Assembly: GCA_964482725.1 (NCBI GenBank)
Contig: CAYZYT010000002.1
Location: 5,591 to 69,590 of the forward strand
Reading direction: 5' to 3'
DNA: 64,000 nucleotides
Origin: an uncultured bacterium
Lineage (GTDB): Bacteria; Omnitrophota; Omnitrophia; Omnitrophales; Aquincolibacteriaceae
Position numbers and translations under genes: made by a program. The notes beneath the pieces were generated by a model. It was not told the DNA's origin. It saw only the letters and a program-made list of their open reading frames with translations, and ran no database searches. Positions 19,901-60,750 of the stretch are shown in pieces; the first letter of the stretch is position 1, and each line of letters opens with the position of its first letter.

Positions 19901-22900
19901 GCGCTGGCCGCTGCGGATCCGGCGATGACGTTCTTTAAGCAACTGATCGGGAGCAGTGAACGGGCCACACCGAAGGTGTCGTATTCGTTCTCCTCAGCGG
20001 ACGGGAATGTCTCGCACCAGATCGGTTTTGATGCTGCAGATTCGACCCGCGGCAGTTACACGAAACAGGAGCGGGTGAGCCGGGAGCAGATCCTGAGCGA
20101 GATGGCGGCCGAAAACGCTTTTACGACGACAGATACCGTTGCTCTTGTCGCGGAAAAAAGGACGTTTCTCGAGAAATTGCAAGCCTATGCCGCGAGTTTC
20201 TTTTATAAAGCCATTTCGGGGATCGATGTTTCGTATACCTGGAGTGTTGCGGCCGCGACGGGGATCGGGCTTGGTATCTTGAACATTCTCTCTACGGCGA
20301 TGAACGGCGGCTACACATGGACCGTTCAGAATACCGTTTCGCGGAATGTCTTGGGAGCTAATTATTTCGGGATCAATGGTATCGATGCTTTTAACGGACA
20401 AGATGTCACGCATGTGGTGACCTACCGCTCGACGCTTCTGGGCGGAACTCTCGATTCAGAAAGTTACTCCATCATTTCTAAGAACGGCCTAGAAACACGC
20501 ACGGTGAATCGTGATGCGGTGACCGCCCCCTGGATCCGCGGCATACAGACCCAGCAACGGTCCACCGCTCAGAATCCCGTGACTTATGAAGGCAAGACCG
20601 GCGACTGGATCATCACCTCGAATTATCTTGGCACCGCATTCGCCGCAGTGCCCGGAAAAACGGAATACTCGTTGCAGCTTCTTGAAAAAATCCAGGTTTT
20701 GGATCCGGTGACCCAAGCGCCGGTCGGCTATCGGAAAACCGGGGTGACTTATATGATCAACTCGGGGACAGACGACACGTTTGATCCGACTAAATCCGAT
20801 TACAAAATGATGAAACAAATTCAGCTGCTGAAGCCGGGCTCCGCAGAAAACAAGACCGAACCGTTCCAGGGCAAGATCGGTGTCTGGACGCGGCTCATCA
20901 CCGAGTTGAACGCCGGATTCACGGAAGTCGCCGGACTGGCAGACTACAGTTTGCAGTTCGATACCCGTGAAGGGAATGACAATATTACGTATAGCATTTC
21001 CGGATTTGACAGCGCAGCTTTTACGACCGGGGACCTTGAGATGTCCACGCAAACCCAGACCTGGGGTAAGTTCGGGGGCGACGCGCAGGCCAATCCTCCG
21101 AAAGAAGGCCAGGAAGGGAAGTGGAGCAATACGGTCAGTGGCCTTGGCAAGAACTTCGGGGTGATCGGCGGGACGGAATACAGCCGGAGTCTTGTGAAGA
21201 TCGGTGCGGACGGATTAAAGACCGGGAAGACCTACATCATCTCCGGTTATTCGGATGCCGGTTTCAAGGCAACGGATCCAGCGTTGAAATATACGATCCA
21301 GGAAAAAGAAGCGATCGAAACGACGGTCACGATCATTGATCACCCGGTCAATGGGTACTGGATGCGGACTTCGAGCAATCTCGAAGCCGGTTTTACCGAT
21401 GTTTCAAAACGTGGGGACTACAACCGGCAGTTGGTCGATCCCGTTGAAAAAGATGTCACCTATGTCATTTCGGGATACGACGCGACTTTTGATCCCGCCG
21501 TGCAAGGCCTCAGGATCGAATACTCCAAGCAGGAAAAAGAACACAACCAAACCTACGGGACGGCAACAACGCCGCCCCTCAAAGGGAACGGCATCAAGAT
21601 CTCGAGCAAGTTGACCAGCACCTTCGCCGATGACTCGGGCGAATCCGAATACAGTCGCCAGCTTGTGGGCCGCGATCCCCTCACGGGAGTGCGGACCGGC
21701 ATTACTTATGTGATCTCGGGTTATAACAAGGATTTCACCGCCGCCCCCTCAGGAAAGCGTCTTACTTATTCCATGAGCGAAAAAGAATCGGCCTCGACAT
21801 GCTATGGGACCGAAGCCTGCGGTCAGTGGACGAAGATTTCAAGCAACCTCAAGAGTGATTTCGGGGTCCAAACTTCCACGAAATACAGCCGCCAGTTAAG
21901 CGAAAAAGATACGACGTATACGATTTCCGGGTATGACAAGAATTTCAGTAATGCGACTTCCGGTCTAGAATATTCCAAGCAGGTCACGGAATACGGCAAG
22001 ACCTATTTCGGTGTCCCTGGGAAATGGACGAAGGTCTATAGCCGCTTGGATTCCGATTTCACGGAGGGAACAGAAGCTCAATACGCATTGCAGTTTGAAG
22101 ATAAGGACGGACATTACGGCGGGGATGCCTCCAAGGGGATCCCGGACAAAGAGGGGGGCTGGATCAAGAGCTACAGCAATCTTACGAGTAATTTCACGGA
22201 ACAGGAATCGAGTAAGTACAGCCTCCAGCTGTCCGAGAACTCCGTGGAGATCACGGTCGGTGTGCCGAACACAACCACGGTGGACGGAGTGGAGGTGACC
22301 ACGGTCGTTCCGACGATCTTGAGCGGAGATGCCACCTTTGTGATCGGCGGTTTTGACAGCAGCTTCAACAGTGGCTGCGGCACGTCCTGCCCGGTCCTGG
22401 AGTATTCAAAGTCCGTCAAAACTTATGGCACCACCAATACCTTCGGTGAGGGAGACTGGACCTACAGCTACAGCGAACTGAGTTCGGCTTTTCAGATTGA
22501 GGCCACGACCAAGTACAGCGCGCAGCTCGAGGAAGGACGCCAGACTTACGGCGGACAGGAAGGGGATTGGAATCAGATCTATAGCAATCTGGCATCGAAT
22601 TTCACGGCGACCACGGCTAGCAAGTACAGTCGCCAAATGACGCGGGCGGATACCACCTTCGTGATCTCGGGTTATAACAGTTCCTTTGCCTCCGCCCAGA
22701 ACGCCGTGGTGGGTCTCGAATATGCCAAGCAGATCCAGACCTATAACAAGACCTTTCTCGGCAAGAACGGGAACTGGGTCAACATGATCAGCAAGCTCTC
22801 AAATACTTTTGCGGAACAGCCCGGAACGAGTGAGTATATGAAGCAGCTGTCGGAGCCGGAATTCACCTACACGATCGCCGGGTTCGAGAATAATACGTTC

Positions 22901-25900
22901 TCAATGACCGATCCCAATGTCACGCTTTCGGTCTCCGAAGAGCAATCCGGTTTTGCCGATCTTGATACCGGGATCCTCCCCGCATCTTTGACCGGCCGGA
23001 AAGCGACGGCGATCTACGGCGTGGATAATGTTGCGAACGCCTTTGCGGATTTCAAAAGCCATGTGATCTCGTACAGCGAACAGTTGGATGTCTCGGAAGG
23101 GAACGACGGGAGCCTGCTCCGTAGCGCAAGTTATGTGGTCAATGAGGATCATACGATCGACCATGCCGTCAGCACCGGACTGATCGGTGCTTCGACGAAC
23201 CGGAAACTTTCGGAAACCTTGACCGAGATCACCGGCTATTCCGATCTCACCTTTACCGTTCCGGAGAGCATTTCCTGGCAAGATAAAAAAGATGCGAAGA
23301 CGACGGAGGTGACGACTTTTGACATAGCGACTTATAATTTTTCGGCATCCGATCTCACGACCAATGCCTCGAAGGCGATCGGATGGATGCTTTCGATGGA
23401 TCTGACCAAGAGCGTGACCCGAACCCTGACGTTCAAGGACTCGACCCGCACCACGATCACGGATATCCAGGATACCCATTATGCGGTCAAGACCGGTCGC
23501 GGCCGGTCGGAAGACTACGCGATTGGATACGACTCGTCGGTTTTCGGAACATCCGGTTACCCCGAGATCGCCGCGGGAAAACTCAGTGCCAAGACTTATA
23601 CCGAGTACGTTTATGGCGCGACGGGCGTACTTTTGGGGCAACGTGTTTATGACCTCACGCTGGCGGCGGGAACCGGTTCCCAGGCAGGGTATCAGTCCAC
23701 CGGGGCTCAGATCCTGACCGGCCAAGCCGCCGGAAATGCCATGACCTACAATGTGGATTTCGGTCCCTCGACTCAGGATTGGTATCTCTCGGGATCGGTC
23801 GACGCGGGTTTTCTCTGGATTCCCGTGACCAGTACGGAAACATTCAGCGGAAGCGCGCTTCCGTCCGGCTGGCAAGGTTCCGGGACTTCCGTTTCGAGCG
23901 GGGATGCCGTCATGACCGGGACCGGAGCGAACTACAACACCCAGATGCTCTCCAGCACCGTGCCAGTGGATCACCTGACGGGTCTCTCTGTGGATTTTCA
24001 GGATCCCGCAAACACGCTTGCGCCGGTTACGATCTCGCAAGTGAACGGATCGGCCACCATTTCGCCGACCTCTGGATGGACGACGAACGGAACTGCAACC
24101 TATAACAATTCGCCGGGCATGGCTTATTACTCCATTAATTTTGGGACCGGAGAGGAGGGGGTGCAACTGGCGTTGAATGTGCAGAATCACATGAATGGGA
24201 CTTTTAACCCTAAACCCGGCAGCAACTACAACATTATCACTCAGGTTTGTACTGGAACGGTTTGCTCCGCAACTTCCACGGATTGGGTCACTATCGGGAC
24301 GATGAATATTTCCGCCTCGAACACCGCGCAGACCGGCACCTTGAACTTGGCCGCGGGACTCTACAGCGGGACCCAAAAAGTCCGTTTCAATTGGACCAAT
24401 GACGAGTATTCAAACACCACGCTTCTGAAATGGGACAACAACCTTCAGATCAACAGTGTCAGCGTCCTGGATGCGACGCCATCCACGTTCCACACCCTCG
24501 CAATCGAAAATGGATTGACCGGGACCTCTTACCAGAGATTCGGATTGGTGGCATTTACAGACGGTGCCATGAATTATTTCAGGGTCCAGACCTGCACCGG
24601 AACGAATGCGTGCACCTGGATGAAAGACGGCAGTCAACAAGATATCAAGATCATGTATGTCCCAGCAAAAACGTATACGCTGGATTATGGTTTTTCGGGA
24701 GGGCAGATCCAGCTTTACCTTCATGAGAAGGGCACGGCCAAACCGGCGACCGCGAGTGCTTCGATCTCGGCGACAGGATGGTCGCAAGCCGCGTTTCATT
24801 CCTGGATCTACCGGGGTACGGCGAATGTCCAGGAAGTTCGCACCACCCAGGAGACGCTGATCGATCGAAGTTTCAAGATCGAGGTTCAGAATAATGGGCA
24901 GTGGATCGATATGGGAGTCCAGACCGTGGCGGCCGCGGCCACTTCCACTGCTTTTTCGATCGCAAACACAACCCAGCTTTCCGGAACTCACTCGGTCCGA
25001 ATCACCCCGTTGACCGGATCCACCAGTGTCGCGATGAGCGGCCTTACGGTCCTGACGAAGCCTCTGGATAATGCTTATGTGAGACCCTCGGCGACTTCAC
25101 TCGTATCGGAAAATTTTTATACCGGAGCGAAGTTCCGCGAGATCCTGGCGCGCACCGAGTCGGTTTCTTTCGCGGCCGGAGTCAAGATCATTGACAGCAC
25201 TTCCACGTATTTTTATATCAAACCGGGGGTCGGTGTCGCAGCGGCAACGATCGTCCCGGCTTCCGAGGTGACCAATAAAGCTTGGAAGCTTGCTTATGCG
25301 GAAGCCCGGGATCCCAAAGCCGGGACCACCGGAACCAATGCGAACGTCAACGGCCTTCTTCTCTCAAGGACTTTTTACCGCGCGGACGGACAAACGAGCG
25401 ATTATGTCGTGACCTACGACGCCACAGGCGCGGCCGCGACCCGGGACCAATATATTTACCGGACACCCCTTCTGGGCGATCTGCAAAGCCCCAAAGCCCG
25501 GGATCTGATCTCGATCATTCAGTATCAGATCAATGGGTCGGCCAACGTGAATGTTGGCGATCTCATTACCAAGGTTCAGCTCACGAACCTGTATACCGAC
25601 GCGAATATTCCGGCGGCTTTCGCCGCAACTTCACCCGAGGTTCTTTTAATGAAGGAGCTCGGAAAAGATACGACGTTCCTCTGGCTCCAGAGTAATGTGA
25701 CGGATCTGCCGGCCAATCAGCCAGTCGTGCTTGTCTCCTCGCCGGTGAGTTATCCTGTGACCGGAACGCCGAATCAGACAACCCAGACCCAGGCTTTTGA
25801 TTCTGCCGACGTTTTGCAGCAGTCAACTACGGAAACCTTTGGTGGGATTTTACCGGCGGGATGGCAGACGGGCGGCATCACGACGGTTTCCAACGGAAAC

Positions 25901-28900
25901 ATCTCTCTGGTAGGGACCGGGACGGGCTACGACACGAATGTTTCCGGACCGGTCGTGACGAATCCGTCCTCCATCGCGATCGATTTCCAGGACAGCACCG
26001 CCTACACCGGACTTGTGTCGCAGCAATATTATCTGGATTTTGCAAACCCAGGCCAAGGAGCGGAGGTGATCCTCGCTCCCTTGGCAACAGGCGGGGAATT
26101 TGCGATCGACGGGCAGTTGACGGATAGCGGCTCGACCGGATTCTGGACCGCGCCTGCAGCTCAAAACGAAACGTTGACCCAGCTGGGAACGATCGATTTG
26201 GGGCAGTCCCAGAGGATTAACCAGATCACGGTCCAGTTGTGGGACGGGGAAAGTGCCCGGGTTTACTACAATTACAAAGTCGAGGTTTCAACGAATAAGC
26301 TGATATGGACCAGCGTTTTTGACGGAACCGGAAGTGGAGTGAATTATTCGGGGGCACAAACCATCAACTTTGTGGCTCGCGATGTTCGATACATCCGGGT
26401 CTCGTCAAGCGGCAACAGTACGAACGCCGTTGCGCATATTGAAGAAGTGGATGCGAGATTGATCCCGTATATCCCCGGAAGCGACCAATACATTGTGGTG
26501 AGTACGGTCAGCGGTTCGGCTTATGATACAACGACCAATACGAATACCGCGGATACCTATCGCTGGATGGTGGATTCCACGACCGGCGCAATCTACAATA
26601 ATTATGATTCCATAGACCGTCCTTCCGCAGGGGCCGCCTATTACCAGATGAATTTTGGAGCCGGCGCCGGAGGCCAGGTTCTGGAGCTTAATGTTCAGAA
26701 CCATGTCTACAATAGCTATCTGCCGGTCACGAACAGTGTCTATAACGTTCGCGTCGAGGTCTGCACCGGCACGACTTGCTCCGCCACATCCACCGATTGG
26801 GCCAGTCTCGGAACGATGGATATCGCCGCGTCATCCTCGGGACAGACCGGGCGTCTTGCGATCCCGGCGGGATTTGGCGGCACGCACAAAGTGAGGATCT
26901 TCTGGCTGAACGATCTTGCGCAGAATAGCCAGGACAACAATATTCAGATCAATAGTGTTCGCATTCTGGATCGAGCGCCGTCATCGCTCCAGCACATTGC
27001 GATCGAAGACGTCAGTCAGGGTGCTTCGGGTACGGCCGGGTACCGACGCTTTGGGCTTGTCGCGTTCCGCGATGAGGTTACGGGCTCGAATTATTACAAA
27101 GTCCAGGTGATCGAGGGAGGAACCCTTCGCTGGCTTCAGGACGATCATAAGCTCGACGATCTCCGGATCGACTACACTCCCACGAAGAGCTATACCGCGG
27201 ATTTCCGCTTCGAGAACGGCTCGATCAAGCTCTACTTCTTTGAAAAGGGAGCGAACCAGCCGGGGAATCCCCGGGCATCGATTTCGGCTGCCGGATGGCT
27301 GCAGGCGAACGCTCATTCATGGATCTATCGCGGCACGGCCAATATCCAGGAAGTCCGTTCCACTCAGACCGTGCTTTCCCAAAACTGGCAGTTCGCGGGC
27401 GCCTCGGTCAATAACGGCGTCATTACGCTAACGGGAACAGGAAGCAGTTATGGCAGCAATGTCTCCGGTCCGGCGGTTACGAACCCGACCTCCATGGCGG
27501 TCGATTTCCAGAACGGTACTCAATATACGGGAGCCGTCGCGCCTCCATATTACGTGGACTACGCGAGCGCCGCCCAGGGCGCTACTGTGATCAATGATCT
27601 CCAGACGGAAAGATTTTTCACCCCGGGACTTCCGGCGGGATGGACCACGGGCGGTGGGAACATCACTTATAATTTAGACGATCTTGTGATGACCGGGACC
27701 GGGAGCAATTGGAACACCAATGTTGCTTCCTCTTTGACTCCGGTGACCGAAGGGACGACTTATTCGATCGATTTTGCGACCCAGAATGCAAATACCCAGC
27801 TTTATCTGGCCGTGGACAACGGGGATGATTCTTCGTCGAGTTATAAACGTTTCGGGATTGTGCAGTTCTTCGATACCACAACCCAGAAGGCTTATTTCAA
27901 GATCCAGATCATTACCAACGGAACCAGTTCTTCAACCTTCGCAAAAGATGTGAACGGTAATGAGATTCGGATCAATTTCGAAGCAGCTCCAACGCATACG
28001 GTTCAGTTTAAATTTACCAATGGTCAGATCGCGCTTTCGTTTGACGGGCAGTCGGTTTACACGCTTTCCAATAACCTTGGAATGACAGCCTCGCGTTTTC
28101 ATAGCTACATCTGGAGTGGAAACGCCCGGCTGCAGGAAGTCCGTACGCTGACGACGGCGTGGGGTGCGAATTTTGCGATCGACGGAACTCAAACGGACAG
28201 CGGTTCGACAGGATTCTGGACGGTCAATACCGGAAATTCAATCACTCCCAGTACGGTGGCAAGCCCCACGAACGCGGAGCGTTTGGCGGAAGTGGGTGTA
28301 ATCGATATGGGGCAGCTGCGCACGATCAACCAGATCATGCTCCAACTCTGGGATGGGACGTCGTCCACGCGGGATAGCCGCCAATATTACAATTACATGG
28401 TCCAGGTTTCCACGGACAATGTTAACTGGAACACGATTTTTGACGGTACCGGAAGCGGCCAGAATTATCAAGGAGCGCAAACCCTGGATTTCACCGCGCA
28501 GGACGTGCGCTATATCAAAGTTTTTTCCAGCGGGAACACCACGAACAGCGGGGCCCATATTGAAGAAGTGACGGCGCAATTGGTACCCCCGAGTCCCGCG
28601 CTTCAACCGATAGACGGGGTGAATGGTTCTGATGTGATCGCCTCCATGACCCATACGTCTGGCACTCACCCCTGGGTCGTGGATTCAAGGAGCAACTCCA
28701 TTTCGAATCTATGGGATTCGTATGACAGCGCCGGAGCCGTTTACTATCAAATGAATTTCGGCTCTGCCGGGGACAATCGAGTTCTGGAATTGGATGTTCA
28801 GAACACTCCCTATAACAATTATGACCCGGTCGCGCTCAGTTCTTACAATGTGGTGGCCCAGGTCTGTCTGAAAGCAAGCTGCGCAACGGACGCGGATTGG

Positions 28901-31900
28901 ATCGGCCTAGGGGCTATGGACATCGCCGCATCCCGATTCCAGCAGACCGGTCGGTTGAGTATTTCTTCGGCGGTCACGGGTTCTCACGTGATGCGGCTTA
29001 TCTGGACCAACGATCAGGCCGCGAGTAGTCAGGACAACAACATTCAGATCAATAGTATTCGTACCGCAAAGGTGTTATCCGTTTCTCCAACGCCGGAGCC
29101 GCTGGTGATTTCACAAGCAACGGGGGCTTCCTATATTGCGCCGACCGATGTCAGTTCAAGTAACGTGTGGTATCGATGGTCCGTAGACGCTGCGACCCAA
29201 AGTATCTACACGTACGGAGATACCGCTGAGATGGCGCAGCAGCCTGGGGCTGCGTATTATTCCATGGATTTCGGGAATACGCTCGGAAGTCGGGATCTGG
29301 AACTGAACGTTCAGAATTATGCCTACAACGGACAGCCGCCAGTGGCAAACAGCGTTTTCAGCGTGCAGTCCCAGGTTTGCATGAAGACTGCTTGTACTAC
29401 GGATGCCGATTGGATGAACCTCGGTGTTATGAACATCGCGGCTTCCACGACGGGTCAGACCGGACGTTTGGCGGTTGAAGGGATCATGGGGGTCCACGCG
29501 GTCCGTTTTCTGTGGCTGAATAATATCGGCCAGTCCGGCCAGGACAATAACATTCAGATCAACAGTGTTCGTGTTCTTGACCGCGCGCCGTCTTCGTTCC
29601 AGCATATTGCGATCGAGGATACGAGCCAGGGCACGGACGGACCGGGATACCGTCGCTTTGGCCTCGTCGCTTTCCGTGATGCGATGACCGGGGTGAATTA
29701 TTATAAAGTCCAGGTCTATGACGGGGAAGGCGGTCGTTATATGACGGATGGGGCGGGGAATGAATTAAAGATCACGTACGATCCGACCAAGACCTACACC
29801 GCGGATTTCCGGTTCGCGGGGGATCAGATCCAGTTGGTGTTTGGCGTCAAAGATGCTGTCGGGACCGTGGTTGCGACGACCTCCTCCGTCGGATGGAAAC
29901 AGGCGAATATTCACTCCTGGATCTATCGCGGAACCGCGACTGTTTCGGAAGCCCGGACAGGGACCCAGACCATCCAGTATTCGCGAGGCGCGGCCTATCT
30001 TGCCGGGAGAGAATACAATTACTACAAAGGCGGCAAACTCGAGCACATCGATGTGTTTTCGATAGAGGCCGGCCGCTATGAGTTGACGCAGAAACGGTTC
30101 TTCTACAACGAGCCCGCGGATATCCTGAAATACGGCGAAGGTTCAGTCCGGATGCTCGAGTATTACGAAAGCGCCGGGAGCGATGCCCAGAACGTGCTCT
30201 TGCCGCGGACGCTGGCAAGCCGGACCTACTATAATTACAACACTTCGGCCGGGTATACGGGCCAAAACCGGTTGACGGATACGAAGACGTATGCGGTTCT
30301 AGGCGGCAGCACATTGACGCCGGGGAAAGATACGTTCCTCAAACAACAGGAACTCTATAACACCAGCGAGCTCTACACTCCGGAGCTTTGTGCGGCCTAT
30401 CAAAGTTGCTACGGCGCTGCGCAGTATGGCCACAAATCCGTACTAGTTTATAATTACGAAGGACTTCCGCAGGGGGGCACGAGCTCTTATACCACAAGCG
30501 GGACTTCTGAGGTGCTCTCGCAGGTGAACGGAAATGCGGCGCTCTCGTCGTTGGACGACGGCAGCATTGTGATGAATGGGACGGGCATGGGTTATTCAAG
30601 TAATGTCGCTTCTGAGTCGACGTCCCTATCCGGCCTGGAGTCGATTTCTGCGGATTTTCAACCGAAACAATTAATTTCCGGGCCTGAGCGTATTTCTGTC
30701 ACGAACGGTTCTTCGATCCTGCCGCCAACGAACACGACCCAGCGCGACGATGGGTATGAGGGATGGTTCACATCTGGAACAAGCGGTTACGCGTACCGGC
30801 CAGGTTTTGTTTACTACTCCATGGATTTCGGGAATGGGGAAGAAGATAGACAGCTCGAACTCTCCGTGCAAAACATTGCCTTTGAAAACCTGCCGCCGGT
30901 GGCGAACAGCTTTTTCAATGTGACCGCTCAGGTTTGTTTGAAAACAAGCTGTACGGTAGATGCCGATTGGACGAATCTCGGCACTATGGATATTAGCGCG
31001 TCGATTTCTGAACAGGTCGGACGGCTGACCGTTCCTTCGGGGATCGAGGGAAACCGCGCGGTTCGTTTTTATTGGGCCAACAATCTTTGGACAGATTCTG
31101 AGAATAACAACCTGCAGATCAACAGCATTCGCGTTCTGGATGCGACGCCTTCAACGCTCCTGCATATGTCTGCCGAAAGCGGAATCGCCGGGACGGCCAG
31201 CTATCGCCGGTTCGGACTGGTTGCTTATGAGGGAAGCGCGGGCAATTATTTTAAGGTTGAGACCATAACCGGTACCACATGGGGGGGGTGGCTCAAGGAC
31301 GGGGCGGGGAATGATATCAAACTCACGTATGACCCGGCAAAGACCTACTCGCTTGATTTCGTGTTTTCCGGCGGAAACATCCAGCTCTACTTGCATGAGA
31401 AAGGAACAGCACGTCCGGCTACCGCTAGCGCTTCAGTCTCATCGTCCGGCTGGTCGCAGGCGGCGATCCATTCCTGGATTTGGCGCGGGCAGGTCATAAT
31501 CCAATCCGTTACAAAAAAAGTCTCAGGCGTCGCAGCAGCGGCGGCTGTTCCATGGACAGGGCTTACCCAAGTAGCAGCAAGCGGAGCGAGTGTTTATCGG
31601 CTTAGCGAGGGCGCCATTGATTACGTGATGGACTTTGGTGATACGACTCAAGCCGGTCTGCAACTTCTGATCAATGCACAGAATTATTCCAATAACGGTC
31701 TTCCTCCCGTTCCGGGTTCGACATTTAATGTCAAGGTGGAGGTCTGTGAATCTGGAACGAGCTGTGGGGCTTCGGGTTGGACTTCGCTAGGAGTGATGGA
31801 CATCAATGCCTCGGCGGAAGCTCAAACCGGATCGCTTTCATTTTCTGGAAATTACACCGGAAAACATGCCGTTCGTGTTACTTGGCTCAATGATCTCTCC

Positions 31901-34900
31901 GGAACGGGTTCTGATAATAATTTCCAAATCAACGGTCTGACGCTGCAGACCGGATATGCCTCCGACATCTTCAGCTATGCGGTCCATCATTACGATGCGA
32001 TCACGCATGCCATGGCGAGTGACAGCAATTACGAGAGGCATTATGTGCCGCCCGCGACGGTTTCTACGCCGGTCGTGGTGGCCGGATCCTCGGTTGTGAC
32101 CGGAACGGGCGCCGGCTGGTACACAACAAGAGAAGGGGCGGTCCATGCGTTTAACGACAGCACTCAGGGTTCTGGACCGGTGCTTTACAACATGGATTTC
32201 GGGACCGGAGGCAGTTCCTGGAATCTTGCGATAAGCGCGCAAAATTATTCTAACATGCCGGTCTCGGGTTCCACATACCAGATCGCGGTGTCGATATGCC
32301 TGGAAGCCGCCTGCACCCAGGAAAGTCAGTGGACCAATCTTGGTACGCTGGGTATCGATGCAACCCCAGCGGCGGTCACGGGAGACCTCAGTATTGATCG
32401 GGCGATTTCCGCGGGGAGCCACACAGTTCGCCTGCAATGGCTGAACAACATGATGCCCGATTCGACCCACGATAATAATCTTCAGATCAATTCGCTCCAG
32501 CTCTTCCATAAACAAGAGGCGCAAGTCCCGGGGACCCCGCAGGATGCAAGGGTATCGGAAACTTACTACCGCGCGGACGGGGCTATTTCCAAGATCGACG
32601 CCTTTACCTGGGGCACCAACACGATCAAGAATACGACGACCTTCGTTTTTATGGAGTCCACTCAGGAAGGCGACATGCCGCCGGTCCTGCTTTACACGGT
32701 CAACACGAACGGGAGTTATTCGATCTACAACACCGCATTCGAGGCCGGAGTTATTCTCCCGGGAACCTTGACCCCTCTTTCCTGGGGCGGCTCCGATCCT
32801 GCGTCTCCGGCAGTCCTTTCGTCCAAACAATGCGGACCCAGGGTCGTGCAGGAAATGACTCGCGTTGGTGACCAGGTCCAGCGGACGAACTACACGTACC
32901 GTCAGGATGGGACGCTCCAAATGACCACGGCCCGGCAGCTGGATTCCGCCGGTTTGCATATTACTTCAGTGTCATCGTTCGACGCGACGGGCAAACGGAT
33001 CCAGACGGTGGATTCGTACGCCTGGATGTCAGGGCGGAATGGGGCGCCGTACAATCCGGTGAGTGCCCGCGAAACTTATTTTTATCATGACGGTGCCTAC
33101 GCAAGCTATATCGAGCATACCGAACAGCGCGCGGTGAGCGCGAACGGCACGGTGGCGAGCGAGATCGCTTCGAGTACCGATTACGGCAATTCCATAAGCG
33201 GGAGATCTTCCAAGCTCCGGACGACTTATTTTGCCACGAACCGTCAGGATGTTTACACGTACAACGCGGCGGGACAGCTTGCTTCCTCGACCCAATACCG
33301 GACCTCTTCCGGCCAGGCACAATCGGTCAGTTATTACGATCCCGAGACTAACCGTCTGCTTCGCTCCTATTCGATCGCCGGGAACGCAACGGAAGTTTAC
33401 ACCTATCGGGCCGACGGCACCTTGAAAGAATCCCGGTCCTACGAAGGGGATTGCGGTCCGCTCTGGACGCCGGTCGTGGGGCATCTTGATTCGCTCAAGG
33501 TTTACGACCGGTTCGGAAAAATGACGGATTCTTACTCGTATTCCGATTACGCGGCTGATATGCATGAAGTTTATACGTATTGTGTTCAGGCCTCCTGCAC
33601 GGACGATCAGATCGGAAAATTGAAAACCTCCCTGGTTTATCGCGTCGTCGACGGGGTTCTGACCCAGGAAAAGACCTACAATCTCGAGACCGGGGTCCTG
33701 ATGACCTCTGTAGACAAAGTCAACAACCTGACGACGACATTTGAATACAACGGAAATCGTGAGCTGATTCGAAGCAGCGTCTTCACTCTCGAGGGGGGGA
33801 AGAAGTCCACCACCACTTATGATCCGGCCAATTACAGCCGTCAGACCCGCACGGAAAGTTACGCGACGGACGGAACGACGGTGGTCGGTTGGACGGAGAA
33901 TTGGTATGACGCAACCGGAGCTTTAATGAAGTCCGTTTCCCAGGGCGGTTGGACCCGGACGGAAACGACTTTTTCCGGTTCCCGTGGGCATGAGCGCGCC
34001 ACCCTGGCAAATGTTTATACCAGCATTTATAGCTGGGCCGCCGGGCAGGTTTGGGACACGGATTGGGGTGATGCGGGAGGCATGCGCAATGTGGTGGCCG
34101 GGTTTGTCGCAACAGGGTCGCTCATTTATGCGTGCGGCGGCACTGGGGAAGGAAGTGCCTGTGAGCTTCACACGTTCAATTACACGTTCGATTACGGGGC
34201 GGGCGGCGAGAATGGGGTGACCCAGACCGGAACTGAATGGCGTTTCGATTCGAATTCTTCGGACAGTGTTACGACGCGGAACGGCTACGCGATCCGGAAC
34301 GGAACGCTCAACACCTATACCTACAAAACGGTTCAGGATGTCAACGGCCGCACGGTTTCCACAGAATCCCGGAACAGCAGCGGGGTAGTCACGGACAGGA
34401 CCTATGGCTACCAATACGACCAAAATGGCAACGCGCTCCGGTACACCAGCTACAGCCGGAGTACCGATGGGAAAACCCATACGTACACGGTGAACCAAAC
34501 CTATAACGCGGTGGGTCAACTTGTGCAAACCGCCCAGTACGAGGGCAGTAAGCTTGTTTCCATAACGACCTACACGTATCGTGCCAGCGGAGTTTTAGCG
34601 CAATCCGTCAATATTTCCTATGATGACCAAGGACGTCAGGATACGAGGAATACGACGACGTACGATTCCTTGGGACGCGCCGCGAGCACCAACACTTATT
34701 TCTTTGCCGGAGGGGCGACTCAGAACAGCATTGATTCTGCCCGCCGGGCGATCGCCCGGGCCCGGGCTGCGCAGCGTGCGGCTTCCCAGCTAGCGTCCGC
34801 TTCTCAGAACCTCCAAAAAGCTGTCCAACTCCAGAAGGAAGCCCAGAGAAACGCGGCGCAATCCAGAGCACTCCTCGCCCAAGCGAAAGTTCTTATTGCC

Positions 34901-37900
34901 AGGGCTCAAGCCCAGATCGCCTCCGCGATAGCCACGTTGAAACGTCTCGGGGGCAGCTACGCCACTATGGCTAATTTGGTTGAATTGGCGGGGAAAAGCA
35001 TGCTGGCATTTTCGAATGGGGGTACTTATGACATCGAATGCGCCAGCATCCTGGCAGGCCTTGTGTCTCGCTATATGCAGGGTGACAGAAGCGTTGCGCT
35101 TTTGCAGATTTCCGCCGACAGCTATGCGATCGTCGGCGCCGATTCGGTGACCACAAATCCTCTCACCGGAGAGACGGTCATCACCTATTCCGGGTTCTCC
35201 ACGAATGGAAAGAATAATGATGCCCACTGGATGAATATGACGGATACGATGCGAGCCGACGGTCAGATGTCACGCCGTGTGATCTCGAACCAAAGCAATG
35301 CCGAAGACACGATCACCATGGATTATGTCTACAACGCCGCCGGTCAGCTCCTCTATTACAACACACGTGTGGATACTCCGGATACATGGTTCATGTCAGG
35401 TTACCATTCGTCCAGTCGAACCTACGCCGACTCTTCCGCGGGCCAAGCGGCCATGGAGGCTGATTTTGCCGCGGCCGCCGCCACAGCGGGTATTTCGGTC
35501 CACGACTACATTGCGCAACACACCACGGACCGGACTTGGACTATCGATGAAGATCAGGCAGGAATTAATGGCTGGGGCCGCACTACGATTGTGGTGGTCT
35601 GTGTTGTTGTTGGTTTCTTGATCGGCGGTCCTTATGGCGCTATCGCTGGATTGATCGTTGGAATTGTTCTCTGTGTTGCCATCAACAATGCGGATAATTG
35701 GTTTGGAACTTCGGAGCAGAAAATGGCCAGTTACTGCATGGCGGCCGTGTTGGCGGTAGCTTCCTGGTATTGTCCGGCGCTGTGGTTGCTGTGGGCCGCG
35801 GTGTCAGCGGTCTGGACCTATGGCACGACAGGGGACTTGAAAGCGGCCGTAACCGCCTTCGCGATCGCCGTTGTCATGCATTACATTAATCTCGCTATAC
35901 CCGTCGAGGGACTAGGGACTGCTGCGGGAATAGCTGCAAGCACAATTCCTATTGTTCAGGCCATTGTCAGTTTTGTGGTTCAAGTGGCGATTTTGACAGT
36001 TATTAATATGGTGGTTTATGGGACTGCGGATTATCTTACGCAGTCGGGGCGTAACAAGAGAAGTTGGACCGAGTGCATGTCGGACACATCCAAATATGCC
36101 CTTATCATGGCGGTTATTGCGGTTGGAATGAGGTTCCTCGGGAGATGGTGGAGAGGAGAAAGCCCGTCGGCAAGCTTACGCCCTCCAGTAGCACCCAAAC
36201 CACCCCCTTTCAGCATTGTAGGGGCCTCGGCAATATTTTTATCTAATATTATGACGAGCATTGTTATGGGCTCGGAAGGGACGCAAGACACTTTAAAAGG
36301 ATGGGGCCTTGGCGAGGCCGAGGATACTGACAATCCCAATGATATTAATATCGCGCGTCGTGTTTTTTCAGGCGTTTTAAACGGAATGATCAGCGGGTTG
36401 GTTGGGCAGTTTGCGCCGGGTAACAGCATGCTCTCTTTCCAATTCTTGATGAGTGCCGCGATGGGAGGATTGAACGCTCTTTTTAGCGCAAGTATTGCCA
36501 ATGCCTTGATGCCGAGCGTGACTGCGGAAGGGATGTATTCAGAGGCTGTGACAGACCTGATGGGGAAATTCACGAGCGGTGTTTTTGATATGTTCCAAGA
36601 GAGCTTTTTGCAGGGGCGGCCCTTGACCGCGGCTCAAAAGGAACAGGCTTATGATACGGCCAAGGCGAGTGGCGCCTTTGACAAACAGGACGATCTAAAC
36701 GGACTGACGCTCGACCAATGGATAAACGGAAAGGATATCGGAGGTTGGCATGCGCAATTTGCTTGGAATCCGGATAAACAATGCGTCGCCACAACCCTTT
36801 TGCTTGGAGGGCGAGCGATCACCTTGCAGGGGAATCAGCAGCTCAATACTTTTCTGGGAATACTCGGGGCTGATCCGTCAAAAGTCACACCGGTGATGTT
36901 TATTACAGCGCTCGCAAAAGCGCTTTTTAATGCCGACGTAAAAAACCTCGGCTCCAAAAGCACGGCGGAACGGGCCCAAGAGGATTCCGCCAAAGAGTCG
37001 ATTAAAGTCGTGGTGGATGGCGTCACCCTTTCAATCGATGTCCTCCGATCTTCGGAGATGGTAACGCCTGAAGTGGCGGAAAGGGCCCTACGGACTTTTA
37101 TTTCAAAATATGGCAATCTGAAAACCCTATTGACGTCGGGCAATACGAACGCCCTGGGAGATCTTTTGGGAGCGATGCAGACGTCTATGAAGTCCGGGGA
37201 ACTTCGGGGCATCCTTTCCGTAACATTCGAAAACGTCAATCTTGGCAAGTTGGGGCTCGCGAGTTCCTTGACCGTCACGGGCGATTCGGTTTCCGCGACG
37301 ATCGAGTCCGCAGGGTTGGCCTGGACGATCACCGGCAAAGACTTCGCGGATATGCTTTCGGTCGGCGATCTTCTAAAATCTGCGTTGGATAAATCCGGAT
37401 TGGGGGCACTCCTGCTTGCCGGGGAAAGGGATTTTGGCAAGTTGACGGATGCCTTGATCTCGTTTGGCGATCTCCTTCAGCAGGGGCTTCTGGACGGACA
37501 AAGCATTAAGGCGACTTTTATCATGAAGTACACGGCAGAAAACGGAAAAGTGCTCGACATCACCGTCACATTCACGTGGACCAAAGATGCGGTGGCCTAC
37601 AACGCCACTATCAAATTGGCGGACGGTTCTTCCGTCACCATCGAGGCGACGGTCCGCAACACCAAAGAAGCGATCCACGATATCAAGACCGTCGCCAACC
37701 TTGCCGCTCAATACGATTCGCTTTATTTTACCCAAGCCAATATCGGAAAAGTGATCGAGTTTATGACGAGGGTATTCGACTTGCTGGGTCTGGGGGAGGG
37801 CGGTCTTTATGCGACTCAGATGAAGCTCACATTCAAGGACATCGAAGGGAATCTTTTTTCATTCACCTTGACCAAAACCAAAGGCGGAACGGCCGCAAAC

Positions 37901-40900
37901 ACCAACGTGCTTTTTGAGGTTCAGCTCGTCAATGGCATCAAGCTGAAAGGTCAGGGGACGGGGATCGAGGCGACGGCTAACGGGGTTTTTGCGCTGGCGT
38001 CCATTGTCAAGGCTCCCAAATATGCCACGCTGAACACCATGATCGCGGACAATCCCCAAGCGTGGAGTTTGCTTACGGAATGTATCACGGAGATCATCGG
38101 CGCTGTCCGGAGCGGCAAGATCACGCTGATCGATTTCTCGCTCGAATTGAAGTGGGGAACGTTTGTTTTTGATGTGGCGAAGCAGACCGTTCAATATATG
38201 AATGTCCTGGCCCAGACGCAGGACAAGACGCGCTTTGCGCTGTCAGGCAAATTTGGATTCGATAAGGTGAGTGACGGGCTCAATCAAACGCAGCAATTAA
38301 GGGGGTTGGCCGCGGGTTCCGCGACCTTGGGAGATTTTATCGGGGCCGCCTACAAGCAATTGACGGTGACGGCTCAAAAACTGGGCTCGCTTGATGAGGT
38401 GCAGACGGTGTCCCAGCAGGTGGCGATGGGAGAACTGGGGATCACGGCTTTTGAAAAGAGCGGGGCGGCGATCGGAGAATTTTTCCTTTCCGCGATCAAT
38501 GTCAATGGCCAGATTTTCAACGGCTTGCGAGCCGTGATCTCGTTCGCGGGCAAGGATGGCACGACTCTGAAATGGTCGACCCCGACTTTTATTTCCGAGA
38601 GAAAGGGTGACGGAAGCGCTGCAGGGACCGCGATGTATCAGAAAATTTCCGGGGTGGTTGAAACCCTCCGGACGCGGGCGGCGGGTATTTCGCTGGATCC
38701 GATTGCGGCAGGAGGCGAATTGCGCGGATTTCTCGCGGAGCTGCAGAAAATCTATACGGCCCCCGGAGCGATCATGGCCGGTCTTTCGATCCTGCAGGGT
38801 TCGCTGATGCGCATGGAGTTCCTGGTGGGACCCAAACAGATGGCTTTAGGCGGGCTTGTTTTTGACGGGGTCAATTTCCGTTTTAGCGGAACATTGAACC
38901 TGGATCCCAAAGGGGTGAACCGTCTGGAAGTGTCGGGCAAAGCTGGTTCTCTGGAGTCGGTGATCGGTAATTTCGCGAATATGGACACGACCCTCCGATG
39001 GATCTCTAAGTACACCGATGTGGTGAACAAACTTGCGGTGGGAGGATCCAAGCTGACGGGGGTGGACGGGTTGAGATTCCTGGCCGACATTGAGGCGGAG
39101 TTGACCAAGCAAGGGATCCAAAACACTTTGCAGGGCACGGCGATCATGGGCCTGTTCCAGCAGGTGATCTTTGGGGGTTCCCCGGCGGCTGAGTTTTTGA
39201 CCATCAATTCGAAATTGAAGGATGGGAGTATAGTCCAGACCTTCAGTCTGAACGGTAATGCCATTCTAATGGACCCCGAACATAATCGGATTATGGTGAA
39301 TGGAATTACCACGTCGATGACACGGGACAGTCTTAAAACGAGCTCGGGTCAACAGAGCGGGAAAGTCTCCCTGATAAGGACCGAGCAGGGGGCGCTCTAT
39401 CTTTCGACGGATCTTGGGAGCAGCGGTAACAGTGCGCAGTACGAGGCCAGCGCGGCGCTGGCGTTGGCGCAATTTTATGCGGAAACAGGGCTTGCGCTTT
39501 CGGGGTTTCAATTCTCAGGAACGATCGGCGGGGTGCTTCAGGCCGGACGGCGTACTTACACCGAAATCGTTAATTTTCAACTGGCCGGGGGAGTGTTCAC
39601 GCGGGACGCCAAATCCCCGGTCGTGGTGAATTATACGTATACCAATGCGTACCGAAGCTTCACGGTCTCTACGGCCTTTGAGGCGATGGGGAAAGCGGAC
39701 GAGTACACGCAAAATAGAGCCTCGGCGCTTCTGGATGCTGCCGGAGGGGCTGCCACGCCTGCAGAATTTTCGGCGGCGCTTCTGCCGGGAGGCGGCTTAC
39801 AGGGATTCTTCGGGGCTTCCGCGATGAATGCTATTTTGACAGGCGGTGCGTTTACGACTGGAGAGAAGAGCTGGAGTTTTTCGCTCATTGCCGGAACACT
39901 GGATCTAAAAACAGGTATGGGTATTTATTCGGGTGTCACGCGGGATGGAAATAAATTTTTAATGGGAGTGCCCGAGTGGCAGAAAGCCGGCGGGTTCGGG
40001 ACATTGGACAAGGCTTCCGGGACATTCAGGGATACGCTCGGCAAAGAACTTCCCGGATTCCGCGTCAATCGCATGACTCCCGACCAGATCCCCGTCGATT
40101 CCAAAACAAGTCTGCCAGTAGGGGTGACCTACCCTCTGCAGATCAAGGATAACGCGACTCTCGGCCTCGCTACACGAACTGCGCTCGACGGATTCTATCG
40201 CAGCGAATACGGGTTTTCATTCAGTCTCCTTGGTACCAACGGCGCCATCATTCTTCTCGACTCAAAATTCAATGCGTTGTGGGTCACCCGGGAAAATGAT
40301 CTTTCGAAAATCAATGACCGGGGGCTGACCGGAGTCGGGGTGAATCTCGGCAAAGTTGCTGTGAATGAGAATGGGACTTGGTATGCCGACACGGTGAAGG
40401 AAAAGTATGGGAATTCTCAAGTCGTGTCCGGGACCCTCCGAACTAATGAGGGACGTACAATTTCGATCAACTCCGCAGCACAGGTCTCGGGTTATGTTTT
40501 TGGCGGAAATCTTTCCAATTTGAGCATTGTTTCTCAAACGGCCGCCGCCGATTTGGCGCAGGCGTCCGGTCTGGTTTATCAACGCGGGATGACCGTCTTT
40601 TTCAGCGGGGGTGCCGCTGTGGGATGGGGCGACCTCCGGTTCGATGGAGGCAGGCCGAATGTCCAGAATGCGGTGATCGACGGAAGAGTTTACATCTATA
40701 GCAGTGCGGCGAATGCGTGCGTGGGTGGCGATTCGCGGAAGGTGGTCAACACTTGGAGCGCGGACCAGCAAGGAAACATCCCCGTATCCATGGAAGGAAA
40801 TAAGGTCGCGGATTATGCAAAGCGCGTGACGGGATATGATTTCAAGGACTCGGGATATGCCGGGTTGACGTTGGAAGAGCAAAAGACAGGGGGCGATTTT

Positions 40901-43900
40901 ATTGCCCGCTTCAGCTTGGGTACAAATCTATTACTTCCTGGCTCGGATGCTCTTTTTGCCGGCGGAGCATCAGGAACCTTTGTCGGTTCTGGCTCTGTGA
41001 ACTGGCAGGATAAAACAGTGAGGATCCAGGATGTAAAAAGTGTTTCCTTGAATCTCCGATGGGCGCTGACCTCGAACGGACTCTATCAGAGAACGAACCT
41101 TGCGACGGGCGAATCGGACAGAATGCTCCAGGGCGATGGAGCGACGGAGTGTAAGAAAATCGTCGACTCCACTGGCGTTGCAAAATATGCAAATCAGGGC
41201 GAGATCCGCTCCGGGGCCACGGTTGTTTACGAAGGAACGAACGTTGACGGAAAAACAGTTTTTGTAGGATACGACGCGCTGAATCGGTTCGTGCTCTCCG
41301 GCACGGTGATCGGTGGCAGCGTCAGCATTCAAAATGCCATCAATTTTTCCAAAGACAGGTCCTGGACCGTTTTGCCTAACGGCACTTTGCTCACCACCCA
41401 GATCTCAACGGGGATCGTACTGTCTGCCACGAATGCAAAGGGAACCGCTTTGCCGATGACGCGAGTAACAACCACACGGAACGGTCTTGCGGAGGCCGGA
41501 ATCACGGGCGTTGCTCTTGATCAGAACGGCAAGAAGATCCCTGTCAATTTGACAGTTCCGGTGGGGAGTTGGGTTCTCAAGGACGGTACGACGACGCTGT
41601 TCCTCAACGGAGAACGGACCAGTATTTTTGGGATCATGAACGGTGTCCAGATCCAGCAGTGGATCACGGATCAATATGTTCTGCAGGGTGATGGAAGCGG
41701 ACTTGTGATTGCGGATCGTTTCTCTGGAAAGATCCTCGGTGGATGGGACATCCGCAAGGGGGATACCTTTGGACGGGCTTTAGAATGGAAAGCCGGGGAA
41801 GTCATGAACGCTGCGGCGAGGCAGGGGGCAGAACGTCAGGTGCAGGAAGAGGTCCAAACAGCCCTGGAGACTCCGGCGGAAGTGGCTCCTGTATCCGTGA
41901 TGGAACAGTTGGTCTTGGAGATCGTGGCACAATCGCTTGAGGGAACAGGTCTGACCTTAGGCGCCAACGGTGCTCTCGAAACCATCCCAGAGGGTTTTGT
42001 GGCGATCGATCAAACCCAGATCGTCAAGGCTCAGCCGGTCACCGCGGTGAATTATAAAAATCAGGCCGGAGTATCGCAGACTGCGAACTTGATGACCCCG
42101 TCCAAGGCGCTGGTAAGCGTCGGGGCGACGGAAGCGACGACTCTCCGGATCTTCATGGACGGTGAAAGCAAGATCGTAGGAACGACCGTGGGCGATGTGC
42201 GTTACGCCAGCTCGATCGTCTTTTTCAAAACTGTCGATGCGAATGGGAATGTGAACGGATTTGTTCAGAATCAAGGGACCGGCTGGATTGCGGTGATGAA
42301 TGCTTCGGGTATCCTTGTGGGCGGCTTGGATATCCGCGATCCGTACGCGCCGCAGGCGATGGTCTGGGAAACTAGCGCCATGAACCCGCTGGGGCAACGA
42401 CAATACACCATCACAGATAAGGGCGAAGCGAAAACACTGACGCTTGACCGGTCGACGCAGGCACTCGTCGGGCGAAATGCTGATAATCCGGAGGCGACTC
42501 TCCGCGTCTACGCGAACAGAAATGCAATGACCGGCTCGTATGAAATCGCCGGAGCGACGCTGGGCGGTCTCTCCGACGCAGCTCACATTATTTTCTTCCG
42601 CGCCGGTATTTATTTGCTTTCCGGAGATTCTGTGGCCGGGATTGCTTCCGATATTTTGACTGTCCAAAATACCTTAACGCAGGAGTTTCTGGGGTATTTG
42701 GGTGCAGACGGAGCTTTTGTCTCCGGTGCGGCGGCCGCGCTTTCAACTCCTGAAGCTCGTGCTGTGAATTCCCAAGCGGGTATCGGAAAAGGTTCGGTTG
42801 CTTACGATCATGTTTATCGGGTCAAGGGCGCGGACGAGAAATATCACGGTTATTTCTATCAAGGCATCAATCTTGTAGGAAAAACGGTAGCAAACAACCT
42901 CAAAGACGTCGGCCAGCTTGGAAGCAATAATGCGAAGCAGGGGCTTCTGACCGCATTCTATAAAGTGGGCGAAACTCTTTACACTCATAGCGCGAGCGCG
43001 CTCCAGAACGGCGATTACGGGGTTTATCTTGCGACCAATAAGGCGGGAAAACCTATCGGAATGATTGGCGTCAGCGGTGCGTTCTATGCGATAGAAACGT
43101 TGTCGTCTCCGACCGAGATCAATTTAAATACCCGCACCGGAAGCGTTGCGTCTCGGCAGGGTGAATTTCGTTTGCGGGCGGATGCCGGGGAAGGTGGAGA
43201 ATTTTATTACACCTACCTCGATCGGAATCAGGCAGAAATCGTCACGATGCGCATGAATGACAAGGCCGCCCTGTCGAGCATGACCCGGGAGGGTTTGATC
43301 GTGGCTGACGTTTTGAAACCGATCGAAGGCATGAGCTATATGGCGTATCAAATCGCCGGATTTACTTATGTCTTGAGTCCTAAATTGGCTGAGACTCGGG
43401 CTCTCGCGATCTTCGATCGCAGCGGCCGATTGACCTCTTATCTCAATGAGAATGGAACGCTGGGAAGTCAGTATCAGAAGGATCCTGCGGCCGCAGGCGA
43501 ATTGATGACGGTTGCCAGGATCAACGGTTTTGACCACGATCGCAGTTTTGGGGTGGTGCGCGCGGATGGCCAGATATTCCGCATCTATGTGAAGGGGAAC
43601 GACGCGGTACTGTTGGCCACGACGTGGGAGAAGCCCGACAGCGGGCGGTCGGTGGATCAAATGATGAGCGGCGCTCTTTCGGTCGCGAATCTCGATCAGG
43701 CAAGCACCAATATCCTGTTCGTTCAAACGGCGGATTATTTCTTCCGAGGCATTTCGCAGTCTTCCGCACGGAGTATTTTCCTGAGGACCGACCTGAGAAC
43801 CGGGGAGACAAACGGGATTCAGGGGGTGAATGGATTTGTGGCATTCCCCGTGACCCATGTAGCTTTGCTGGATCCTTTGGGCGATGCCCAAAAGCCTTTT

Positions 43901-60168: not shown

Positions 60169-60750
60169 ATGACTCATCCAAACTCTGAACGATCAAACCA
60201 ACCTCTCGCCTCATCCTCCGAAGGGGTTCGAAAATCAACCCCTGTTGAGGCCTCTTCGTGGGCCAAGACGACGGTGGTCGTGATAGGTTCATTGCTTGTT
60301 CTCTCATCGATTTGGCAGATGCTTATATTCCTTAATTATGCGCACTACCAGTATGTGTTCCGGGAGTATTCCGAAGAGATCATTCAATTCCGGTATCTTT
60401 TGTCCTTGGGCTCTCGATGCCTGGGGATGGTGATTGGCCTTGGCATCCTGCTTCGCAAAGAAAATTTCCGGAAAGCCGCCATCGTTCTGATGGTTGCAAC
60501 GATTGCCCTCATGGTGTTTAAGCATCCTTTTTCGGCGGCGCTGCAGCTTAATCGCCAATATATTAATGCGTTAGATGCGATTTTCAAAACGGCGCCTTTC
60601 AATGCCGATATTCTTATGAGTTTTTTTCATTCGATAGAAAGACCCCTGGCATACTTAGTGATCATTACCGTGATTCTTGTGGACGATCTATGCGCGCTTT
60701 TGATCATATTCTTTTTGACACGACCTTCGGTTAGGGCTGTTTTTCGCTAG
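60169..60750 (+). CDS. Hypothetical small integral membrane protein (193 aa, about 4-5 TM helices), co-oriented 48 nt downstream of the giant gene.
   Basis: ATG at 60169 with AGGA 7 nt upstream and a TATAAT-like box at 60150-60155. Hydrophobic helices VVVIGSLLVLSSIWQMLIFL, LGMVIGLGILL, AAIVLMVATIALMVF, LAYLVIITVILVDDLCALLIIFFL. Confidence 0.55.
   Translation: MTHPNSERSNQPLASSSEGVRKSTPVEASSWAKTTVVVIGSLLVLSSIWQMLIFLNYAHYQYVFREYSEEIIQFRYLLSLGSRCLGMVIGLGILLRKENFRKAAIVLMVATIALMVFKHPFSAALQLNRQYINALDAIFKTAPFNADILMSFFHSIERPLAYLVIITVILVDDLCALLIIFFLTRPSVRAVFR

Follow-up and report, generated by a model that had tools for sequence, protein, structure and literature searches.

A divergent YD-type beta-hairpin array within a giant Omnitrophota protein, probably a spacer or adhesion module rather than a toxin shell

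What role might a run of tyrosine-rich, YD-like repeat units play when it lies deep within a bacterial protein of some twenty thousand residues? In this work we address this question for a 64,000-nucleotide (nt) stretch of DNA from an uncultured Omnitrophota bacterium (contig CAYZYT010000002.1, positions 5,591 to 69,590; hereafter the window), in which a preliminary description, made from the sequence alone, had read positions 29960-35380 as an RHS/YD-repeat shell running into a coiled coil and a first cluster of membrane helices. In that description such shells, in RHS proteins, teneurins and Tc toxins, enclose a C-terminal cargo and release it after autoproteolysis. Our analyses point to a different reading, which we hold to be the probable one: the units form a divergent YD-type beta-sheet module of a giant membrane-anchored protein, whose task within the external part would be spacing or adhesion, and do not make up a toxin shell. 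The region corresponds to amino acids (aa) 9934-11740 of a single open reading frame (ORF) that occupies nearly the whole window on the plus strand (161-60121; 19,986 aa when its first GTG, at 161, is taken as the start). Open over 1..60121, the frame is stop-free back to base 2, at the left window edge, giving a protein of >20,039 aa; since positions 1-160 are still open frame, the N-terminus of the protein and any signal peptide on it fall outside the window. Third-position GC content in this frame ranges from 0.54 to 0.67 along the full length, and the minus-strand ORFs within the YD region are arginine-rich shadow ORFs. One ORF with coding periodicity throughout counts in favour of the reading proposed here.

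The main array spans aa 10795-11520 (32543..34720, plus strand; ~725 aa), supported by motif enrichment, AlphaFold models and Foldseek. Its tyrosine-rich, YD-like units, first reported between 32540 and 34700, proved to be real. The peptides originally quoted as examples all fall in the giant-ORF frame (YTYNAAGQLASSTQYRTSSGQ at nt 33254-33316, YTYRADGTLKESRSYEGD at 33398-33451 and ISYDDQGRQDTRNTTTYDSLGRAAS at 34613-34687), and for a looser hairpin pattern we counted 12 occurrences within aa 10795-11520, above all of 1000 composition-matched shuffles made from that same segment (2.6±1.5, maximum 8). A strict Y.Y[DNRT]..G pattern is found six times in the whole protein, every one inside aa 10911-11722. 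The array is rich in Tyr (8.0%) and Thr (13.8%), and its predicted secondary structure is an unbroken series of hairpins with D/N-x-x-G turns, the units themselves being far from canonical, with just one YxYDxxG and no RxYxYDxxGR. Two other places initially assigned to the repeat were not confirmed as parts of it. The "first patch" (aa 9934-10107; 29960..30481, plus strand) is a tyrosine-rich segment (12.6% Tyr) lying between carbohydrate-binding-like blocks, in which the motif is at shuffle level (2 occurrences against a shuffle mean of 1.06, a count reached by 295 of 1000 shuffles) and which, on sequence comparison, does not significantly resemble the main array, its closest homologue or YD proteins. 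The unit near 35320, YVYNAAGQLLYY, is present as a peptide, but belongs to a separate conserved module described below.

An exhaustive phmmer search with aa 10790-11989 as query against 1.84 billion representative proteins matched six proteins, P0001-P0006; the giant protein itself has no self-match in this library, in which giant genes are perhaps under-sampled. The strongest match, P0001 (2,399 aa; E 4.1e-42), is encoded by a complete gene on a bacterial contig, and phmmer, BLASTP and a two-sequence alignment, A1, all define a shared array core at aa 11068-11437 (33362..34471, plus strand), aligned with P0001 residues 1882-2223 (35% identity over 379 BLASTP columns) and keeping the Tyr/Gly hairpin positions. 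P0001 has at its start a hydrophobic leader readable as a signal peptide, and carries its array close to the C-terminus, succeeded by an Ala/Gln-rich segment of ~170 aa reading as helix and then by the end of the protein, with no hydrophobic cluster and no cargo domain. It also holds, in another order, the N-terminal repeat type of the giant protein (aa 978-1857) and a module of about 200 aa, here termed module X, which is the only part matched by P0002. Besides P0001, the sole sequence matches to the array proper are four small YD proteins, P0003-P0006 (188-381 aa), which match aa 11342-11518 at whole-library E-values of 2e-4 to 1e-3 and are themselves recognised by the Pfam RHS_repeat profile (37-72 bits), two of them also by DUF2963. 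Comparison of A1 with the small YD proteins in hhalign gave 94% probability over 37 columns, and in sequence terms the array appears tied to the YD family weakly and locally. Being too short for a cocoon, P0003-P0006 indicate that YD hairpins occur as plain sheets; unlike the degenerate, Pfam-negative array, they are stand-alone proteins whose units are canonical (YxYDxxGxL with charged flanks). By eye, several small YD proteins begin with a hydrophobic leader and a Cys, resembling lipoprotein signals. Scans of genome, metagenome and viral contigs with the region, and of metagenomes with A1, recovered no relatives; these scans need near-exact 8-mers and rule out close relatives only.

Structural modelling carries the assignment further. 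A single-sequence AlphaFold model of 745 aa (mean pLDDT 35) was usable only over aa ~11410-11510, with all Foldseek matches above E 1e-3; among them are the DUF3836 and BF3112 structures, structural relatives of the non-shell YD type. A second model, based on A1 and covering aa 11054-11530, reached a mean pLDDT of 60.3 and a pTM of 0.45, with pLDDT 60-88 over aa 11054-11283, and contains 32 antiparallel strands in 477 aa (55% strand), all in hairpins with D/N-x-x-G turns; extrapolating from the modelled part gives ~50 strands for the array, about one third of which lacks a usable model. When the A1 model was compared with the Protein Data Bank (PDB) by Foldseek, the first 17 places went without exception to Rhs effectors and teneurins (E from 5.5e-11 to 4e-6; probability mostly 1.0 and in all cases >=0.97), the best being RhsA (7q97_A, E 5.5e-11), with further matches to 8qja, 8uxt and 8cp6, Tse15 and Tse5 included (Tse5 8cp6_B, E 1.9e-9), and to teneurins (E 5e-9 to 4e-6). 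Single-layer OspA sheets rank next, with template modelling (TM) scores of 0.17-0.33, mostly 0.2-0.3; global TM-scores to the shells are 0.09-0.18 at a root-mean-square deviation of ~30 Å, although the global shape of the A1 model is unreliable either way. As modelled, the array is YD-type in its local geometry but does not take on the form of a cocoon, and the AlphaFold, Foldseek, hhalign and phmmer results, together with a near-threshold DUF2963 match, point to a YD-type beta-hairpin fold in the broad sense, degenerate and highly divergent in sequence with the fold retained.

These results also bear on the simplest deflationary account, in which the units would be a compositional accident of a Tyr/Thr/Gly-rich stretch with no repeat fold. 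Such an account could draw on the lack of Pfam or NCBIfam repeat matches, on the two weak matches that are all a canonical YD-unit hidden Markov model (HMM) finds, and on the absence of internal paralogy at E<1e-8 past aa 10868. Set against these are a motif count above every composition-matched shuffle, a homologue of about 35-36% identity that keeps the Tyr/Gly hairpin positions, and regular hairpins modelled at pLDDT up to 88 with Foldseek probability 1.0 to Rhs and teneurin structures. Shuffles, homologue, model and Foldseek together effectively refute it, and we regard an accident as extremely improbable.

Two local features of the array deserve mention. The decapeptide SGSRGHERAT (aa 11272-11281; 33974..34003, plus strand) sits at a hairpin turn, is identical at 10/10 positions in P0001, and directly precedes a Trp/Gly/Cys-rich insertion (aa ~11287-11340) that AlphaFold fails to model; it has no counterpart among known RHS motifs. 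Cysteine makes up 0.3% of the giant protein, yet five residues fall in the YD module (aa 11098, 11141, 11146, 11325 and 11334), of which 11141/11146 and 11325/11334 form two close pairs (window 33400-34200), and the corresponding insertion of P0001 also has a CC pair. Such clustering is consistent with disulfides in an extracytoplasmic module.

If the array is YD-type in fold, is it also a toxin shell? No Pfam or NCBIfam match to RHS_repeat (PF05593), YD-repeat (TIGR01643), the RHS core or DUF6531 was obtained on the region at E<=10, nor did RHS_repeat, YD, core or plug profiles appear when Pfam was run on 1000-aa tiles of the whole giant protein (E<=0.1); the only repeat match is DUF2963, at 22.4 bits against a cut-off of 22.6, in the tile from aa 10734. 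The same profiles performed strongly on the positive control, E. coli RhsA (RHS_repeat 226.5 bits in 11 stretches, RHS core 57.9 bits, DUF6531 66.1 bits), and the lack of any RHS profile match was the outcome that the preliminary description had itself named beforehand as speaking against its proposal. A home-made YD-unit HMM, for which RhsA and four small YD proteins supplied the sequences, gave only two weak array matches at maximum sensitivity (6.5 and 1.7 bits). Direct comparisons were equally negative: phmmer of the region against PDB sequences returned 0 matches, phmmer of the array against E. coli RhsA a negative score, and hhalign of A1 against RhsA a probability of 5.6%.

The hallmarks that seal and operate an RHS shell were likewise not found. 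The earlier remark that the canonical PxxxxDPxGL core is absent was borne out, with 0 regex matches to the aspartyl autoprotease motif PxxxxDPxG[LW] across all 19,986 aa and no match on the region to the C-terminal RHS core profiles (PF03527 / TIGR03696). The RhsA control contains PVTNTDPLGL, and the DPxG nearest to the array on its downstream side lies 1,400 aa off, past the membrane cluster. Two possible cores were considered and rejected: the weak candidate proposed near 35160, TNPLTGETVITYSGF (nt 35153-35197), lies in module X and is not conserved in either of two homologues, and DPNGL at aa 4280-5664 belongs to an unrelated, far-upstream tandem repeat of 183 aa. Within the N-terminal tandem repeats DPNGL recurs each 183 aa at aa 4552-5467. 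No N-terminal plug or cap (DUF6531 cork, beta-propeller or FN-plug) had a Pfam match upstream, where a plug of novel sequence would escape; the segment ahead of the array consists of carbohydrate-binding-like repeats. After the array no variable C-terminal toxin or cargo domain was found; the chain passes through the helix, then module X and the membrane cluster, and runs on for ~8,000 residues. Judged by these sequence tests, the array does not appear to be an RHS toxin shell.

The order of elements downstream, from array through helix to membrane helices, stood as first described. The helix (aa 11521-11598; 34721..34954, plus strand; ~78 aa) is Ala/Gln/Arg-rich (23 Ala, 12 Gln, 9 Arg, 0 Pro), with its onset seen in both models, and only its designation as a coiled coil had to be softened: in the best heptad register 74% of a/d positions are A/L/I/V/M/F, but just 30% are L/I/V/M/F, which leaves a coiled coil plausible. 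It is followed by module X (aa 11599-11800; 34955..35560, plus strand), containing YVYNAAGQLLYY (nt 35324-35359), a YADSxxGxAA motif and TNPLTGETVITYSGF. Module X is conserved in P0001 (residues 685-869, 29% identity, E 6e-17) and P0002 (residues 524-578, 47% identity), in both without an adjoining membrane cluster. In the giant protein the first membrane-helix cluster (aa 11808-12038; 35582..36274, plus strand) comprises ~6-8 hydrophobic helices predicted by Kyte-Doolittle scans, the first of which start 290 aa past the array; its outer flanks are both acidic, two of its inner loops are K/R-rich, and the phmmer search, whose query reached aa 11989, found no homologue of it. A second hydrophobic-helix cluster with long K/R-rich loops lies at aa 15380-15800 (46298-47560), and a lone YD-like unit, TYDSTGVLSTIDT, occurs at aa 15327, ~45 aa upstream of it. 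A duplicated YD-helix-membrane cassette was considered and rejected, as neither the clusters nor the regions upstream of them resemble each other in sequence. Further downstream lies an SF2/DEAD-like P-loop domain (aa 16850-17002; 50708-51166), with sub-threshold matches to ResIII (19.8 bits, cut-off 22.5) and DEAD (12 bits) and a Walker A MGAGKT at aa 16864. Its sole database homologue is P0007, a partial Omnitrophota protein (34% identity) named "helicase C-terminal domain-containing protein" (Helicase_C 21.5 bits). An identity of this NTPase as SecA is not supported, there being no direct similarity to E. coli SecA and no SecA_DEAD Pfam match.

The rival that takes up the preliminary description would make the array a genuine RHS-type shell, sealed fully or almost so by elements other than the canonical ones, and holding or chaperoning the helix, module X or hydrophobic helices downstream of it until they pass into a membrane, in the manner of Tse5. 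The best structural matches are indeed real shells, Tse5 among them, and hydrophobic helices lie within 290 aa of the array; moreover, the Rhs cage of Tse5 delivers an encapsulated pore-forming fragment, a precedent for a cage with membrane-inserting cargo (PMC10684867), and a teneurin YD shell can go without cleavage, its chain exiting (PMC8765631). Yet the missing core, plug, RHS_repeat and aspartyl-protease signatures, all measured beside a positive RhsA control, speak against this, as do the ~50 extrapolated strands in place of the 76 in RhsA, TM-scores of 0.09-0.18 to shells compared with up to 0.33 to single-layer OspA sheets, ~8,000 aa of chain beyond the membrane cluster, and a P0001 module with neither hydrophobic cluster nor cargo. 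For a closed, cargo-enclosing, autoproteolytic shell the case is similar, since core, plug and cargo are all lacking and the array is ~2/3 of the size of the RhsA cocoon. Nor does the suggested coupling of a shell to a membrane-inserting segment fit well, in that the cluster is internal to the chain and P0001 has nothing to enclose or insert. The lack of core, plug and cargo, the small array, the long continuation of the chain and the clusterless P0001 together disfavour a shell with membrane cargo, and we consider the shell explanation quite improbable.

The reading of the array as an external spacer or adhesion module draws on its surroundings. Upstream, aa 7909-10868 consist of discoidin/carbohydrate-binding-like repeats with strong internal paralogy, F5_F8_type_C matches of 49.1 and 30.6 bits and a sub-threshold CBM60 match (25.5 bits) in the Pfam tiles; beyond aa 10868 the sequence is unique, with no internal paralogy at E<1e-8. 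Immediately before the array stand three repeats (aa 10134-10790; 30560..32530, plus strand) paralogous to aa 7909-9938 (self-BLAST 30-54% identity, E down to 6e-84), the paralogues that carry the stronger F5/8 type C (discoidin) match (49.1 bits), and these three are probably jelly rolls of a carbohydrate-binding-like kind. The short YD-like peptides TEYVYGATGVLL, TFYRADGQTSDY and VVTYDATGAAATRDQY occur in spacers between the carbohydrate-binding-like blocks (window 23600-25800; aa ~7814 and 8404-8431), and one of them has a weak DUF2963 match (16.8 bits). The occurrence of the array in P0001 and of module X elsewhere, together with these spacer patches, supports the behaviour of a module. 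External placement is suggested by the putative signal peptide of P0001 and its homologous modules, by the discoidin-like neighbours, by the acidic flanks on both sides of the first cluster and by the NTPase beyond the second, whose K/R-rich loops we also count as topological support. The hairpin array, its conservation in one further protein, its local likeness to Rhs and teneurin sheets, the lack of core and plug profile matches and of the core motif, and the order of the parts are shown by the data; that the array is external, that its role is mechanical or adhesive and that its geometry is open, not closed, is what we infer. In this picture the array would be a stiff beta-sheet element for spacing or adhesion, perhaps wound into an open spiral, lying between distal discoidin/carbohydrate-binding-like repeats and the membrane anchor, to which it would be joined by the long Ala/Gln-rich helix and the conserved ~200-aa module X.

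The same neighbourhood could instead mean that the array is mainly a ligand-binding surface, for glycan or cell wall, acting with the discoidin-like repeats in attachment to host or prey. The array directly follows ~3,000 aa of such repeats, short YD-like patches are interleaved with them, Tyr and Thr are abundant (8.0% and 13.8%), and the strictly conserved SGSRGHERAT turn with its Trp/Gly/Cys-rich insertion resembles a specific site; Omnitrophota giant proteins have, in addition, been proposed to function in attachment and cell-surface polymer processing. No binding-domain profile in Pfam or NCBIfam matches the array, however, and a membrane-proximal site suits a stalk better than a distal binding tip, so that a principally ligand-binding role appears possible but unlikely.

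Several points weigh against the external-spacer reading. The function proposed for the array is inferred from context, and the membrane topology was read from a crude Kyte-Doolittle hydropathy scan alone; external placement takes it as given that P0001 is led by a signal peptide and that modules related by homology lie in one compartment. With a depth of two homologous sequences, the conservation arguments are thin. The A1 model has a pTM of 0.45 and resolves aa 11287-11450 poorly, and for aa 10795-11053 the single-sequence model reaches a pLDDT of only ~30; a partly or fully closed barrel can be accommodated by the model, and the Foldseek E-values to true shells are strong. An array of 725 aa is also not far short of a teneurin-sized shell.

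Comparison with known systems places these arguments in perspective. With the Rhs/Tc shells (RhsA, Tse5, Tse15 and TcB-TcC), which include its best structural matches, the array shares antiparallel beta-hairpins and Tyr-x-Tyr...Gly turns. Unlike them, it has no RHS profile match, no autoprotease motif and no toxin domain, is not C-terminal but lies around residue 11,000 in a protein of >20,000 aa, and would have ~50 strands by extrapolation where the RhsA cocoon has 76, with two ends sealed by a plug and by an aspartyl protease domain (PMC8765631). Tse5 likewise pairs such a sheet with a membrane-inserting segment (PMC10684867); here, the membrane cluster is internal to the chain. The array resembles teneurin (6fb3, 8fia) in being a YD-type sheet in the probably external portion of a protein anchored to a membrane and in showing, as read here, no release of encapsulated cargo. 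The complete teneurin shell is sealed by an FN-plug and NHL propeller and carries a C-terminal Tox-GHH domain (PMC8765631). None of these three elements was detected in the giant protein, in which the membrane anchor is C-terminal to the array. The teneurin anchor is N-terminal to its shell.

A further comparison is with the published giant proteins of Omnitrophota (10.1101/2023.11.21.568195; 10.64898/2026.06.07.730766, the latter with 176 complete Omnitrophota genomes), for which a role in attachment and cell-surface polymer processing has been proposed. The protein described here is of Omnitrophota origin, exceeds by a single ORF of >20,000 aa the 10,000 aa by which such giants were recognised here (19,986 aa with an open edge, and syntenic long ORFs), and appears to share their layout of a long, transmembrane-free, discoidin-like N-terminal part, membrane clusters and a divergent, putatively DEAD-like NTPase. 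It differs in that its NTPase is sub-threshold and without direct similarity to E. coli SecA, and, unlike the "Dockerin-type" giant proteins, it has no dockerin / EF-hand or TSP3 repeat match in any Pfam tile. The published giants also include RHS-like tubules of ~1,500 aa with regularly spaced exterior helices; the array, in contrast, is ~725 aa and almost all-beta, and by analogy an open spiral or tube akin to those tubules is possible. A bolder reading would make the array a core-less RHS-like chamber or tube of a new kind, mechanically coupled through helix and module X to the membrane cluster as a built-in conduit or insertion device of episymbiotic or predatory Omnitrophota, with SGSRGHERAT as a processing or gating site; we rate this reading as very improbable.

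The remainder of the locus provides additional context. The N-terminal part of the giant protein (aa 1-7597; window 161-22950) is built of tandem paralogous repeats with only weak, sub-threshold or biased Pfam matches (WIF, DUF2960, Gp34_trimer). A 193-aa ORF without a Pfam match (60169-60750, plus strand) begins 48 nt past the giant-gene stop, and a convergent VWA+TPR (BatB-like) gene lies downstream on the minus strand (61976-63949). The latter is 78-92% identical to genes in metagenome-assembled genomes of Candidatus Omnitrophota, which places the source of the window in this phylum, and at three such loci (L008, L009 and L017) an open frame of >2,600 aa occupies the same convergent position; the long ORFs of L008 and L009 match the giant protein C-terminus at 26-28% identity, with no match for L017. 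Syntenic giant genes on the Omnitrophota contigs JBDRCT010000010.1, PLLJ01000040.1 and CAIOAT010000047.1 were covered over their last ~2,700 codons. On these sequence comparisons the position of the giant gene is conserved and the gene itself hyper-divergent. At the P0001 locus (Logan SRR15237811 contig, around 1793-8992), flanking genes encode response-regulator, EAL and PilZ proteins; PilZ genes 3' of giant genes have been noted as conserved (West-Roberts et al. 2023, Fig. 7 legend, 10.1101/2023.11.21.568195).

Should the external-module reading prove true, YD/RHS-type sheets would be an ordinary material from which giant Omnitrophota proteins build their external parts, a setting remote from the toxin shells under which such sheets tend to be annotated. 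The locus also illustrates a striking contrast in conservation, with a giant gene of <=28% identity beside a flanking gene conserved at 78-92%. It would also serve as a warning that "YD repeats" should not be equated with "toxin cocoon" without a check for core, plug and cargo. More generally, YD arrays may drift under every profile threshold yet keep their fold, which would matter when annotation is extended to the large part of giant proteins that has none.

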